Below, piece by piece: positions 1,880 through 63,795 of a stretch of DNA of 64,000 nt (its first letter is position 1; each line of letters begins with the position of its first letter). A program made the translations under genes and the position numbers. This DNA is from Clostridia bacterium (GTDB lineage: Bacteria > Bacillota > Clostridia > TANB77 > UBA1234): the NCBI GenBank assembly GCA_017522765.1, contig JAFWYG010000001.1:27291-91290 (forward strand). Direction: 5' to 3'. The notes beneath the pieces are model-generated. The model had not been told where the DNA came from and did no database searches. It was given only the letters and a program-made list of their open reading frames with translations.

Positions 1880-1925
1880 AAGGAGTGTCCCCTAATTAAA
1901 AATTTCGTCAGTCGGGGACACCCCT
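1880..1925. repeat. Copy of the dispersed GC-rich palindromic repeat (AAGGAGTGTCCCC ... GGGGACACCCCT)
   Basis: Sequence identity to 8 other copies in the window. Confidence 0.6.
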
Positions 1926-1982
1926 ATTTACAAATAATTCACACATAAAAAAACACCTACGATAATTCGTAGATGTTAATTC

Positions 1983-2444
1983 TTATTTTTGTCTCCACTT
2001 TCTTCGTTTGAAGAAATATTTGATTTTATATATTAATTTTTCAAACCACGTGTCCTCTGGTAGTTCAAGCCACAAGAATGGTTCTGTATTTGTTTCTTCT
2101 ATTGTTTTTACAATTTCTTCTTTCTTAATTGTTGTATTTGATTCTGCATGCGTTTCCGCTTTTTTCTTATCATTTGCCTCATGAATTTCACGTTGTGCTT
2201 TCTTATCTTCTTCTGTTTCACACCAGTAATTTAGATTTATCATTGCAAGCAAAGAAAGAGTCTTGCTACTAAAGTTGTTTTCTTTAAAAGGAATTGAAAA
2301 ATCCAACTTAAATTCATAACCTTCTAATTTTTTAGTTTCCATTTGCTTTAATAATTTTTCGGGAACTTTTTCTTTATATTTAGGTTCCATATGATTAAGT
2401 ATTTCTAGAACTTCCGCGTATGCTTTTTTTAATTCATTTTTCAT
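1983..2444 (-). CDS. Hypothetical protein, 153 aa, Lys/Glu-rich
   Basis: ORF track. A hairpin terminator (ctacgataattcgtag) lies just downstream. No recognisable domain. Confidence 0.5.
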   Translation of the reverse strand: MKNELKKAYAEVLEILNHMEPKYKEKVPEKLLKQMETKKLEGYEFKLDFSIPFKENNFSSKTLSLLAMINLNYWCETEEDKKAQREIHEANDKKKAETHAESNTTIKKEEIVKTIEETNTEPFLWLELPEDTWFEKLIYKIKYFFKRRKWRQK

Positions 2445-2457
2445 TTGTTCAACCCCT

Positions 2458-3843
2458 CTATTGGCCTATTTCTTCTATTTTCTTTTTTGCACTATCAAGC
2501 GTCGGAACAGGTGTATCCAGACTTTTTGCATCCATTATAACCCTTTGAGTTACGTCCGTTATCTCTTCCATTCCGATTTTATTTATTGCTTCTAACACTC
2601 CACCTTCACCTTGTAATACAACTGTTTTTGCATCATCTATACTCTCTATTTCTGTCTCTGGAACATCAGTATCAATTTCGCTTTCAGCAGGAGTATTTCT
2701 TTCATCTTCTCTGCTTAATGAGTTATTACTTTGTGTTGGATGTTCTGCTTCCCACATTCTCTTTTTATATTCAACAAATTGTGGTCTAAACTCATCATAA
2801 AATTCTACGTACGAATCAACTGCTTGATGCATACTTTCATCAAGTGTTACTCCTTTTTCTTCTGCTCTACTCATTAATCTTCTAAGCATTAATGGAGTAA
2901 TCATCGCCTGTGCAACATCCATATTCATAACCATCTTACCATCTTGGTCAAGATCTCTTCTGGTCTTTTCCATTGTAAGCATAGAATAATCTACAACTTT
3001 CTTCATTAAATCAGGACTTACATCATCCATCTGCGCAACCATAGCTGTAATCCATTTCATTGTACGTGGATCTTCCATTCCGCGTTCTAAAATTTTATCT
3101 TTAACTTTTTGATATCTATCATCTCTATGTTTTTCAATATATTGATCAATTAAATCCATGCAATCGTTAATAGTTAATTCTCGGCTACTTTCTCTTACAG
3201 CTTGAATTGCATCAAAGTTGAATTCATCTGCCTTGCTTACAACTATATCAATTACCGCTTCATTTCCTCTTGATTGTTCGCGCATGAAATCAAAATTTTC
3301 TTTTAATTCTTGTGCTGCAAGTTCTAAAAATGTTGGATCATTTTGTATAGCTTCTGTCATAAATTCAGCATCTTGTCTTAATGAAGGTTCGCTTTCTATA
3401 CGTTCTGTAAAAAATGTACTTTTCTCAGGATCAGCTATTGCATGACCTTCTAAAGTAGTCACTTTTATATCCTCTATTATTTCTACAACATGCGGATCAC
3501 TTCTTACATCTTCAGCAATAAATGGAATAATTTCAGGACACATTCGTAGATTAGCTTTTATAAATTCTTTATCATCCACAAAATCAGTTTCTAGAATCAG
3601 TTCGGGATTATCACTAAAAACTTCAACAGCCATTGCTCTTTGAACCGCAGGTCCTGCTTCCAAAAACAAATCGTAATTGTCTTTATCATTTTTATATGCG
3701 TATATTAAGCTTTGCATAAATTCTAAATTATTAATTTTTTCACCAATACTTCCTAATACGCTTAGGTCTCCACTCTTTAATCCATCTATTAAATCATTTG
3801 AATATTTTGGATCATCTCTCAACGAATCTAAAGTTACTCCCAT
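2458..3843 (-). CDS. Hypothetical acidic protein, 461 aa (possible DUF4116-like helical repeats)
   Basis: Long ORF with a 13-bp gap to the downstream ORF. Repeated D-P-x-helix segments. No confident family assignment. Confidence 0.55.
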   Translation of the reverse strand: MGVTLDSLRDDPKYSNDLIDGLKSGDLSVLGSIGEKINNLEFMQSLIYAYKNDKDNYDLFLEAGPAVQRAMAVEVFSDNPELILETDFVDDKEFIKANLRMCPEIIPFIAEDVRSDPHVVEIIEDIKVTTLEGHAIADPEKSTFFTERIESEPSLRQDAEFMTEAIQNDPTFLELAAQELKENFDFMREQSRGNEAVIDIVVSKADEFNFDAIQAVRESSRELTINDCMDLIDQYIEKHRDDRYQKVKDKILERGMEDPRTMKWITAMVAQMDDVSPDLMKKVVDYSMLTMEKTRRDLDQDGKMVMNMDVAQAMITPLMLRRLMSRAEEKGVTLDESMHQAVDSYVEFYDEFRPQFVEYKKRMWEAEHPTQSNNSLSREDERNTPAESEIDTDVPETEIESIDDAKTVVLQGEGGVLEAINKIGMEEITDVTQRVIMDAKSLDTPVPTLDSAKKKIEEIGQ

Positions 3844-3941
3844 ATCTTCACCTCTTAAATTTATCTTTTGTTTACATCTCTTTTAGTCCAATTTTATTGT
3901 AGCACAATATATTTCTATTTTGCAAATATTATAGTTTTGTT

Positions 3942-3956
3942 ACAAGGAGTGTCCCC
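3942..3956. repeat. Solo half-copy of the dispersed palindromic repeat (ACAAGGAGTGTCCCC)
   Basis: Sequence identity to other copies. Confidence 0.4.
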
Positions 3957-61434: not shown

Positions 61435-61465
61435 TTTTATAAAAAACTCGATTTGTATAAAGGAC

Positions 61466-61732
61466 GTGGAGATTATTTATATACATATTGGAAATAATGA
61501 AATTTTAAATAGAGAAGATATCATTGCTATTTTAGATGTTGAACAATTAATTCAAAATAGAAATAATCTTCGTATAATTAACAGATACAAAGAACGTAAT
61601 AATCCAAAAGATCAATCTGTAATTGTGGTTGAAAAAGATGGTAAAGAACGCTTTGTGTTTACTAATGTTGCAATTTCTACACTTAGAAAGAGATTGTCAC
61701 AAGAAAATGTATATGAATATTTTATAGAATAA
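61466..61732 (+). CDS. DUF370 (RemB-like) small protein, conserved between recF and gyrB
   Basis: IHIGNNEILNREDIIAILDVE motif typical of DUF370. GTG start in the track; the exact start is uncertain. Confidence 0.6.
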   Translation: MEIIYIHIGNNEILNREDIIAILDVEQLIQNRNNLRIINRYKERNNPKDQSVIVVEKDGKERFVFTNVAISTLRKRLSQENVYEYFIE

Positions 61733-61776
61733 ATGCTAGATGAACTAATCATTAAAGCAAGAAGGGAAAGAATCGA

Positions 61777-63702
61777 ATGGGTAAGGAAGAAAAAGTAACG
61801 AATTCATATGGTGCCGAAAGTATCCAAGTCTTAGAAGGATTAGAAGCTGTTAGAAAAAGACCTGGTATGTACATTGGTACAGTTTCAGTTAGAGGATTAC
61901 ATCACTTGGTATATGAAATAGTTGATAACTCAGTTGATGAAGCGTTAGCTGGATATTGTAATGAGATTCAAATTATTTTAAATAAAGATAATACAGCAAC
62001 AATTATAGATAATGGTAGAGGTGTGCCAATAGGTATACATCCGAAGATGGGAATTCCTACAGTTGAAGTTGTTTATACTGTACTTCATGCTGGTGGTAAA
62101 TTCGGTGGCGGCGGATACAAAGTATCTGGTGGTCTACACGGTGTTGGTGCCTCTGTTGTTAATGCTCTTTCTACATGGCTTGAAGTTGAAGTTTCTAATG
62201 GAGAAGGCATTTATAAACAAAGATACGAAAGAGGTAAGACTGTTTCTAAGCTAGAAAGAATTGGAGATACTAAAAAGACTGGTACTAAAGTTACTTTCTT
62301 AGCAGACGATACAATTTTTGAAACATTAGATTTTGAAAATGATACATTAACACAAAGATTAAGAGAAATGGCTTTCTTAAATAAAGGTTTAAAAATCGTA
62401 TTTAATGATATGAGACCTGAAGAACCTATTTTACAAGAGTTCTGTTATGAAGGCGGTCTTACATCTTTTGTTGAGTTCTTAAATAAAAATAAAGAAGCTT
62501 TACACAAGAAGCCTATTTATATTGAAGGCGGTACAGATGTACCTGTAGAAATTGCTATTCAATATACTACAGCATATAGTGAAAATTCATATTCATTTGT
62601 TAATAATATTAATACACATGAAGGTGGAACTCACTTAGAAGGTTTCAAACGTTCACTTACAAAATGTTTTAATGATTATGCTAGAAAGTATAATATTTTA
62701 AAAGATAAAGATGGCAACTTACAAGGTGAAGATATTAGAGAAGGTATGACAGCGGTTGTAAGTGTTAAAGTTTCTGAGCCTCAATTCGAAGGACAAACAA
62801 AAACAAAACTTGGTAATAGTAATGTTGCCGGTGTTGTTTCAAGTATAATGAATGAAAAGCTTGCTGCATATTTGGAAGAAAATCCAACAGTTGCAAAAGC
62901 TATTCTTGAAAAATGTATTACAGCTTCAAGAGCTAGAGAAGCAGCTAGAAAAGCTAGAGATTTAGCTAGAAGAAAAACAGCGTTAGAGAGTAATTCTCTA
63001 CCAGGTAAACTTGCAGACTGTTCTTCAAAGAATCCTGAAGAATGCGAACTATATCTAGTCGAAGGAGACTCTGCTGGTGGTAGTGCAAAGCAAGGAAGAG
63101 ATAGAAGATTCCAAGCTATCCTTGCGATGTGGGGTAAAATGCTTAACGTTGAAAAAACTAGAATTGATAAGATTTATAACAACGAAAAATTATTACCTGT
63201 TATCACAGCAATTGGTGCTGGTATCGGAAGTGATTTTGATATATCAAAAATCAGATATGGAAAAATTATTATGATGGCCGATGCCGATGTCGATGGTGCT
63301 CACATTAGAACACTTCTTCTTACATTCTTCTTTAGATATATGAGACCACTTCTAGAACAAGGTAAGATTTATGCGGCTCAACCACCGCTATACAAGATTA
63401 CTAAAAAAGGTTTAAAAGAAGACATTTATTGTTATAGCGATGAAGAACTTGCTAAGAAGTTAGAAGAAATTGGTGGTAAAGAAAATACTACTATTCAACG
63501 TTATAAAGGTCTTGGAGAAATGAATCCAGACCAACTTTGGGAAACAACTATGAATCCTGAAACTAGAATTTTAGTAAAAGTAGAATTAGCTGATGCTGCT
63601 AAAGCAGATCAAATATTTACTGTACTAATGGGTGATGATGTTGGACCAAGACGTGAGTTTATAGAACAAAATGCTCATCTAGTTACAAACTTAGATATAT
63701 AG
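61777..63702 (+). CDS. gyrB: DNA gyrase subunit B
   Basis: GHKL ATPase motifs; Toprim domain EGDSAGG; C-terminal tail. Confidence 0.95.
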
Positions 63703-63717
63703 AGAAAGTTTAAGAAT

Positions 63718-63795
63718 AGGGACAGTCTTTGTTTTAAAAATTTTCTCGGATGCGTTGGAAGATTTTTAAAACAAGGGCTGTCCCTGCTTACGAAG
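63718..63795. repeat. Diverged copy of the dispersed palindromic repeat (AGGGACAGTCTTTGTTTTAAAAA ... TTTTTAAAACAAGGGCTGTCCCT), directly upstream of the next gene's RBS
   Basis: About 20-bp inverted arms. Confidence 0.55.

Follow-up and report, generated by a model that had tools for sequence, protein, structure and literature searches.

What kind of element is a GC-rich palindrome that recurs in the spacers of a low-GC clostridial chromosome? The question is raised by a 64,000-nucleotide stretch from a Clostridia bacterium (assembly GCA_017522765.1, contig JAFWYG010000001.1, positions 27,291 to 91,290), referred to here in its entirety as the window. An original prediction, made from the sequence alone, described about ten copies of such a repeat and proposed that they are either mobile palindromes similar to REP (repetitive extragenic palindromic) or BOX elements, or the operator of a global regulator. 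The host is an uncultured spore-forming Firmicute of 33% GC, known from metagenome assemblies only (the window is also 33% GC, and not the 30% first given). We find that the dispersed family is real, and favor the interpretation that it is a small, non-coding, dispersed palindrome family of the REP/BIME/REPIN kind, which we regard as probable while leaving appreciable room for doubt. The modular unit, the hairpin potential of its doublets, its non-coding placement and its high turnover are demonstrated directly by the comparisons described here.

Census and anatomy of the repeat

Searching the window with the core AAGGGGACACCCCTT and allowing up to three mismatches yields 16 matches, compared with 0.39 ± 0.62 (maximum 2) in shuffled sequences. 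A profile hidden Markov model of the repeat, built from 16 units, recovers the same 16 together with a degenerate 17th at 63717–63741, and the next-best match (E = 0.065) is the palindromic reverse reading of a known unit. These 17 units lie at exactly the nine loci first listed, and the list was therefore complete; its coordinates were right to within a few bases, except that the copy placed at 39403–39452 is really at 39395–39444, 8 nt away. The repeat is present in nine of the 26 spacers of at least 60 nt, in a window of which 10.4% is non-coding, and all nine loci are non-coding with one qualification. The description of the copies as strictly intergenic is correct for eight loci, but the right arm of the element at 28362–28411 encodes the last nine codons and the stop codon of the cwlD open reading frame (ORF), whose match to the CwlD family ends at residue 235 of 248. 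The nine sites are as follows, with predicted RNA folding energies.

1869–1937: head-to-head pair, cores at 1880–1891 (− strand, GGGACACTCCTT) and 1915–1926 (+ strand, GGGACACCCCTA); fold −24.7 kcal/mol, z −4.1; begins 26 nt past the terminator of a 153-aa gene and lies upstream of the 4009-aa giant gene.
3933–3968 (− strand): single unit, core at 3944–3955 (−); z +0.28; starts at the T-tract of the tRNA-Phe terminator.
14179–14246 (+ strand): two direct tandem units with a 34-nt period, cores at 14192–14203 and 14226–14237; z −1.0; between the divergent yifB-like gene and the gene at 14375.
15324–15391 (− strand): two direct tandem units, cores at 15333–15344 and 15367–15378, both (−); inside the 3′ untranslated region that runs from the transketolase stop (15379) to a bidirectional terminator (15270–15293).
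28352–28420: tail-to-tail pair, cores at 28365–28376 (+) and 28397–28408 (−); fold −27.7 kcal/mol, z −7.6; precedes the 3627-aa giant gene by about 350 nt.
39385–39451: tail-to-tail pair, cores at 39398–39409 (+) and 39430–39441 (−); fold −46.9 kcal/mol on the − strand versus −38.3 kcal/mol on the + strand; directly after the GGDEF gene terminator (39462–39492) and 267 nt upstream of the 3309-aa giant gene.
41341–41410: tail-to-tail pair, cores at 41354–41365 (+) and 41386–41397 (−); fold −31.1 kcal/mol, z −7.5; between the divergent promoters of rsmA (41331–41303) and a 3D-domain gene (41432–41460).
54195–54264: tail-to-tail pair, cores at 54207–54218 (+) and 54240–54251 (−); fold −32.1 kcal/mol, z −7.9; extends from the T-tract of the jag terminator (54290–54266) to 27 nt before the −35 of mnmE.
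63717–63794: degenerate inverted pair, GGGACAGTCTTT at 63719–63730 (+) and GGGACAGCCCTT at 63773–63784 (−); fold −42.2 kcal/mol, z −9.3; occupies the whole spacer from the gyrB stop to the pgm ribosome-binding site.

The unit is about 34 nt long and consists of TTTTCGnnAnnnG (aaTTTTCGnnAnnnG in another rendering of the consensus), followed by GGGAC(A/G)C(C/T)CCTT and then by GTnnnnAAAA or GT(t)nnnAAAA. The 12-nt core is common to all copies and is far better conserved than the flanks, single units included, and a lone unit forms a weak and imperfect palindrome, at whose apex the GC-rich core is located. The 31-bp hairpin originally described as the heart of the family, TTCGCAAC-AAGGGG-ACA-CCCCTT-GTTGCGAA, is found in near-perfect form at 15324–15356 and nowhere else in the window. 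Units are arranged in one single, two direct tandems of 34-nt period, one head-to-head pair, and five tail-to-tail pairs, and the arrangements follow the type of core: ACAC cores are those of the head-to-head pair, the single and the two tandems (1.8–15.4 kb), and the ACGC and ACAG cores at 28–64 kb are every one in a tail-to-tail inverted doublet. The commonest form of the core is not itself a palindrome, and the core-to-core distance varies from about 24 to 65 nt between sites.

The six inverted doublets have predicted RNA folds of −24.7 to −46.9 kcal/mol (z −4.1 to −10.8), while the direct tandems fold weakly (z −2.6 and −1.0) and the single unit not at all beyond expectation (z +0.28); hairpin formation is thus characteristic of doublets. 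By these predictions, doublets can form hairpins of 25–32 bp when present as RNA or as single-stranded DNA, and can form cruciforms when the DNA is duplex. The doublet at 39385–39451 and one at a locus of another assembly (L001, 18320–18392; loci outside the window are cited by L numbers) are alike over their full length and about 12 nt of AT-rich flank, and diverge beyond.

Variation of the repeats between strains

The original prediction suggested a comparison of copies between strains, and when 19 loci from other assemblies of the same species are aligned to the window, gain and loss of units, in-place inversion, presence/absence differences and point changes are all seen. The elements contain 39 differences in 1858 aligned bases, or 21 per kb, as compared with 2.5 and 2.6 per kb in the remaining intergenic DNA and in coding DNA, respectively, such that they change at about eight times the rate of their flanks between near-identical strains. 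For example, the array behind the transketolase gene (15324–15391) has three units in L245 and two elsewhere, and the array at 14179–14246 has one unit in L245 and two elsewhere, with a junction that looks like the product of a crossover between direct units. The doublet at 41341–41410 has the opposite orientation, at the same position, in four of seven assemblies (L239, L241, L242 and L243), with all three asymmetric marker positions swapping together and with identical flanks. At 39385–39451 there are two right-arm substitutions in L239 and L241, the displayed flanks being unchanged.

In L002, which differs by 2.7% in coding DNA, the element between gyrB and pgm is missing, with an unrelated spacer in its place, and at a tenth site there is one unit where L001 has a doublet. 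The elements at 1869–1937 and 3933–3968 show no change across four strains. The spacer between jag and mnmE retains its terminator and promoter in more distant relatives, and the DNA between the two varies, containing either a doublet of the window type, a different doublet with a 49-nt spacer, a short remnant, or a decayed unit. In one of these (L256) the 5′ flank of the doublet, TTTTTTTCGCGAGTTG, is the flank of the window unit at 3955, at a different locus. Such behavior is that of a recombinogenic repeat, unstable and subject to exchange between loci, and not of a constrained binding site. The REP- or BOX-like alternative in the original prediction thus holds up as far as behavior is concerned, in that the family is dispersed, non-coding and hairpin-forming, occurs in doublets, tandems and singles, and is unstable between strains, its mobility being presumptive.

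Location relative to terminators and promoters

Four elements start 0–26 nt past the T-tracts of canonical terminators (1952–1977, ~3965–3998, 39462–39492 and 54266–54290), which belong to the 153-aa gene, tRNA-Phe, the GGDEF gene and jag respectively. Five sites lie 0–57 nt upstream of good −35/−10 pairs, those of the mnmE, rsmA, 3D-domain, 14375 and 2458–3843 genes, and three of the four post-terminator sites are also among these five. The mnmE promoter (54177–54149) has 10 of 12 consensus matches, with the element 27 nt before its −35; that of rsmA has 12 of 12, at 20 nt; and that of the 3D-domain gene has 11 of 12, at 32 nt. The element at 14179–14246 ends 57 nt before a promoter-like site at 14294–14322, and at 3933–3968 the core sequence GGGACA, with a TATAAT 16 nt further on, is itself promoter-like for the 2458–3843 gene. 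Two elements are in divergent promoter regions, one is in a 3′ untranslated region, and one is intercistronic without room for a promoter. The claim that the copies sit mostly just upstream of promoters is therefore only partly right: it fits the five promoter-proximal sites, three of which also directly follow a terminator, and does not describe the 3′ untranslated and intercistronic placements. It was also said that recognizable promoters follow the copies at all three giant genes; a scan of 39100–39520 found no sigma-70-type promoter between the element at 39395 and its giant gene. Given these mixed contexts, placement is better described as the dead intervals that separate transcription units, together with some spacers that are transcribed, and copies gather where they are harmless: in terminator–promoter gaps, 3′ untranslated regions and intercistronic spacers.

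The proximity to gene ends raises the question of whether the elements are simply intrinsic or back-up terminators, an explanation that the original prediction recognized as fatal to its proposals if complete. The hairpins are indeed GC-rich and stable, the arms at 15324–15356 (+) and 54205–54217 (+) pass a simple terminator scan, and the 41341–41410 hairpin is followed by TGTTTTT on the − strand. However, both of the scan-passing arms are on a strand with no gene to terminate, most copies have no T-tract, and beside five sites a separate canonical terminator already ends the upstream gene; moreover, at the two copies in divergent promoter regions there is nothing to terminate. We thus find it hardly credible that the family consists of terminators, and as a full explanation this fails.

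The second proposal of the original prediction, that the elements are operators of a global regulator or sites for a nucleoid-associated protein with a 12-bp core some 60–110 bp upstream of the inferred transcription starts, draws on the same map. The strong conservation of the core relative to its flanks, which extends to singles that form no hairpin, is what would be expected of a binding site; the elements end 20–57 nt upstream of strong −35/−10 pairs (rsmA, 3D-domain, mnmE and 14375 genes), and every one of the three giant surface-protein genes is preceded by an element. Nonetheless, unit orientation and core spacing differ from site to site, the prevalent core is not palindromic, copies are also in 3′ and intercistronic positions, and the genes served have no obvious common function. 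In the strain comparison, moreover, no other part of the spacers varies as much as the elements, which are gained, lost, inverted and mutated beside promoters and terminators that are identical. We therefore set aside the operator proposal as improbable.

Related hairpins in other lineages

Metagenomes were scanned with the pattern GGGACRCYCCTT-N(4–34)-AAGGRGYGTCCC, which matched at least 120 loci, many of them orthologous copies of few loci. Many of the high-GC matches, some of which are directly before an ATG (L117, L146), are probably unrelated hairpins that sequester ribosome-binding sites (AAGGAG/CTCCTT), and these are not included in the family. Among the matches listed, many low-GC lineages have several copies per locus, with flanks of their own that are complementary around the core, including the pairs TTTCTGTCAA/TTGACAGAAA, CGCCCAA/TTGGGCG, GTTGTCAAA/TTTGACAAC, GGGATAC/GTATCC and TGCCA/TGGCA. 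In 22 lineage representatives, which were chosen after screening for stems and are to that extent biased toward pairing, the flanks pair without interruption over a mean of 6.7 bp, as compared with 3.54 ± 0.28 bp when permuted (none of 5000 permutations reaching the observed value); the core is thus carried at the apex of a stem that co-varies and is specific to the lineage. Four-unit arrays of symmetric layout also exist, for example between queA and tgt, and in other genomes the elements are often within operons and directly before ribosome-binding sites, as between queA and tgt in L126, after a T-box terminator in L127, and in L209, L119 and L121.

A scan of a 596-Gb genome collection with the 16-mer AGGGGACRCYCCTTGT gave mostly single chance matches, the query being too short, and on re-checking, real inverted pairs are present only in L027, L048, L061, L074, L087 and L115. 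The named genomes with true doublets are three Lachnospiraceae metagenome-assembled genomes (MAGs) and one 'Eubacteriales' MAG, and the units of the latter closely resemble the ACAC type in the window. A single viral contig matches the doublet pattern, so we do not regard the repeat as a phage feature, and the compact Lachnospiraceae form has no match among plasmid records. No recurring neighbor gene emerged from all-against-all clustering of 2415 ORFs from the element-bearing loci; the clusters that do occur near elements are housekeeping ones only, labeled from their sequences as ABC and MATE transporters, queA, tgt and a Crp/Fnr-type regulator.

The recurrence of this core in other gut Clostridia is not explained by any described repeat family. 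It is possible, if rather speculative, that GGGAC(R)C(Y)CCTT defines an undescribed hairpin-repeat superfamily across Clostridia with a conserved partner that reads the apex, comparable to the REPIN-RAYT association (RAYT, REP-associated tyrosine transposase), and that its carriers include Lachnospiraceae, the 'Eubacteriales' relative, and at least a dozen low-GC lineages from gut and digester. Retention of the apex while the stem is lineage-specific and co-varying would imply such a conserved trans-acting partner, which might be either a domesticated transposase, by analogy with RAYT, or a protein of the host that binds DNA or RNA.

A core shared by several related lineages within different flanks, better conserved than those flanks and free in arrangement and spacing, is also reminiscent of the DNA uptake sequences (DUS) of Neisseria and the uptake signal sequences (USS) of Haemophilus, in which case the 12-mer would be read by a DNA receptor. 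DUS and USS are denser, and are also found inside genes, whereas the copies here are only in non-coding DNA at about one per 4 kb; the flanking stems co-vary, which an uptake signal does not need, there is no evidence of competence here, and Firmicutes are not known to take up DNA sequence-specifically. A role in uptake thus appears very remote.

A more serious alternative is that the repeat acts in RNA, either as a stabilizer of transcript 3′ or 5′ ends, an RNase processing site or intercistronic punctuation, or by mimicking the ribosome or ribosome-binding site, through the anti-Shine-Dalgarno-like CUCCUU of the core or its Shine-Dalgarno-like complement AAGGAG. The elements at 15324–15391 and 63717–63794 are certainly transcribed if their operons are, elements in other genomes directly precede ribosome-binding sites, and stems co-vary between lineages. 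In the window the mismatches within doublets read as G-U in the sense direction (5 of 5), and at 39385–39451 the two strands fold at −46.9 versus −38.3 kcal/mol; where neighboring genes are co-directional, unpaired units are in the sense orientation 13 times versus 6 (a raw count that includes the outer units of four-unit arrays), and by our own reading of the listing roughly seven of eight true singles are sense. Against this, four copies lie between a strong terminator and the next promoter, and so are probably little transcribed, and elements are lost or halved with their neighbors unchanged. Over 40 doublets elsewhere the G-U/A-C polarity is unbiased relative to gene direction (++ 12, −− 12), and the 41341–41410 doublet is present in both orientations in the population, such that a rule by which the G-U side follows gene direction failed and was abandoned. 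We consider an RNA function unlikely as the primary explanation, since it does not account for the copies behind strong terminators or for the absence of polarity; it is plausible for the transcribed copies, and by analogy with E. coli REPs it is compatible, as a secondary role, with a REP/REPIN-like repeat.

Three observations from these other loci are of note in their own right. In a Lachnospiraceae MAG (L087 1200–5100, JBGVDD010000071.1) two kinds of compact core hairpin alternate with a period of about 390 nt and flank small ORFs that look, by eye and without a family search, like immunity or cysteine-rich proteins, giving a cassette-like appearance. A TwoAYGGAY RNA (Rfam RF01731, 90 bits) is about 180 nt from a compact core hairpin on a gut metagenome contig (L157 586–750), probably by coincidence, and in a Eubacteriales MAG (L056 40–200, CAYMVI010000018.1) a lone core hairpin, ACAAGGGGCGTCCCCTTAC, is located between tRNA and 5S rRNA genes that are putative and identified by eye.

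Relationship to known repeat families

In common with the REP/BIME/REPIN elements of Proteobacteria and their associated RAYTs, these are imperfect palindromes of the 20–40 nt class that are dense, extragenic, family-specific in sequence, and subject to rapid turnover. As with REPINs, there are inverted doublets that fold into long hairpins as well as singles and clusters, located behind genes and between cistrons, and half-elements and remnants, such as decay of REPINs would leave, are seen in other strains. There are also clear differences. The conserved part here is the hairpin apex, whereas the conserved feature of REPs is a GTAG or CGTC tag that is unpaired at one end (PMC3733652); GTAG is absent from our units, and CGTC is present only at the apex, in the complement of ACGC-type cores (GCGTCCC), and not in those of ACAC type. 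Direct 34-nt tandems occur, no RAYT is found in the window or in the other element-bearing loci covered, the elements are not depleted from divergent promoter regions, and the host is a low-GC spore-forming Firmicute, a phylum that goes unmentioned in a survey of REPs (PMC3733652). By its established definition, the REP/RAYT family does not include this repeat.

Several other families deserve comparison. The pneumococcal BOX, RUP and SPRITE repeats, STAR of S. aureus and bcr of B. cereus are similarly short, intergenic, multi-copy, modular and structure-prone, and have low-GC Gram-positive hosts, but the present units are shorter (34 nt) and built on a 12-nt GC core, and we recognize no sequence likeness to any of them. 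Miniature inverted-repeat transposable elements (MITEs) are also non-autonomous, palindromic, dispersed, and polymorphic in presence between strains. Unlike them, the palindrome here spans the whole element without distinct terminal inverted repeats bounding an internal segment, the elements (35–80 nt) are much smaller than is typical, and there is no known parent insertion sequence. When the six doublets are aligned, similarity is gradually lost in AT runs and the borders show no direct repeat, the flanks being mutually complementary, and because there is no target-site duplication the repeat is not a classical MITE. The likeness to DUS and USS extends to a conserved 10–12-mer in variable surroundings, inverted pairs behind genes, and lineage 'dialects'; the copies here differ in being non-coding and sparser, with co-varying stems and no link to competence. 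At gathering thresholds Rfam reports only five tRNAs in the window, and at a permissive E-value the elements examined match only generic hairpin (microRNA precursor) models, well below cut-offs; a literature search on the core 12-mers and repeats returned nothing relevant. Partial or chance resemblances to the motifs of the Spo0A and CodY boxes, the CsoR operator, Tn3-type inverted repeats, integron attC, Hin-type hix sites, and CS-6 of ssoA were considered and dropped.

The elements change quickly, as units are gained and lost by recombination or slippage between direct copies, arms of inverted pairs flip, and copies decay or are replaced. If these are REP/REPIN-like repeats, then new sites would presumably arise by a transposition-like copying process. 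The conserved 12-nt core would be the recognition target of a putative trans-acting protein, and effects on the host, such as insulation from read-through, protection of mRNA 3′ or 5′ ends, or absorption of supercoils, would be secondary.

A number of findings weigh against this interpretation, and some concern the absence of an expected partner. No Y1/HUH transposase is evident by phmmer among the window ORFs or the approximately 826 kb of element-bearing loci, with a sensitivity that is uncertain for the IS608 and IS200 TnpA queries used. Among 20 window ORFs scanned against Pfam and NCBIfam there is no transposase either, and the coverage of the host genome amounts to the 64-kb window and some 20 kb more. 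REP-like unpaired tags are missing from the end where they are expected. At the variable sites we see no target-site duplication and no clean empty site; transposition is therefore inferred rather than shown, and all of the observed variation could be attributed to in situ recombination and decay of old copies. Location is also at odds with the E. coli precedent, where REPs are depleted from divergent regions: two of the four divergent regions in the window have an element, and in other genomes we count 10 divergent versus 6 convergent locations, using crude gene calls. Finally, the three elements upstream of giant genes are in paralogous leaders that share a hairpin and paired TTCCGTAAR motifs, and there may therefore be seven independent sites instead of nine.

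Other features of the origin region

The window spans the chromosomal replication origin region, with the sign of the GC skew changing near 57 kb. The dnaA (57426–58760), dnaN, recF and gyrB genes are on the + strand, and rpmH, rnpA, yidC, jag, mnmE, mnmG, rsmG, parA and parB are on the − strand. The host encodes a CwlD-family amidase, SLH and dockerin domains, and three giant surface proteins of 4009, 3627 and 3309 aa, whose genes are at 1–1404 (continuing in L247), 17126–28009 and 29199–39128; these have Flg_new, DUF285 and LRR_5 domains, with a dockerin in one of the three. A 376-aa SLH/Big_9 protein is encoded nearby (42323–43453), in what is a surface-protein-rich region close to the origin. 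A YifB/ComM-type Mg-chelatase-like ATPase is divided between two overlapping ORFs, at 13294–14043 (249 aa) and 12489–13340 (283 aa), and the same split is called in other strains (242 + 283 aa), which could reflect either a frameshift or a genuine two-gene arrangement.

The leaders of the 3627-aa and 3309-aa giant genes (28010–28380 and 39129–39497) are paralogous, and contain an identical hairpin, AAAGCAAATTTAATATTTGCTTT (28243–28265 and 39265–39287), and a common alternating purine-pyrimidine stretch, ACGCGCACGCGC. The 9-mer TTCCGTAAR occurs ten times in all, at 1717/1848, 28202/28332, 39224/39354, 11243, 57051, 58772 and 59027, a count given without a chance expectation. Inverted pairs about 130 nt apart are upstream of all three giant genes, and three copies are in two oriC spacers beside DnaA boxes; the 9-mer may be a motif in its own right, with a role in regulation or replication.

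Four parS-type sites were noted, at 39361–39376, 49741–49756, 49887–49902 and 52745–52760. Two are perfect (TGTTTCACGTGAAACA) and lie on either side of the parA–parB region, one is at the mnmG/mnmE junction, and another, CGTTTCACGTGAAACT, is upstream of a giant gene and adjoins the repeat at 39385–39451. The CGTTTCACGTGAAACT site has exact DnaA boxes on both sides, at 39326–39334 (−) and 39377–39385 (+).

Implications

One practical consequence is a caution that GC-rich islands such as these are not to be taken for regulatory sites, since they are the least stable part of the spacers in which they lie. Because the number, orientation and presence of units vary, the elements should be useful as strain markers. 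The in-place inversion of a doublet between samples is also of interest, as a natural example of palindrome flipping that would be easy to test. Work on persistent REP-type repeats and on their domesticated transposases has been almost confined to Proteobacteria, and a family in uncultured gut Clostridia with an apex conserved across lineages would provide a handle on a possible repeat–protein partnership in Firmicutes, on the protein that may read the core, and on the insulation of transcription units.

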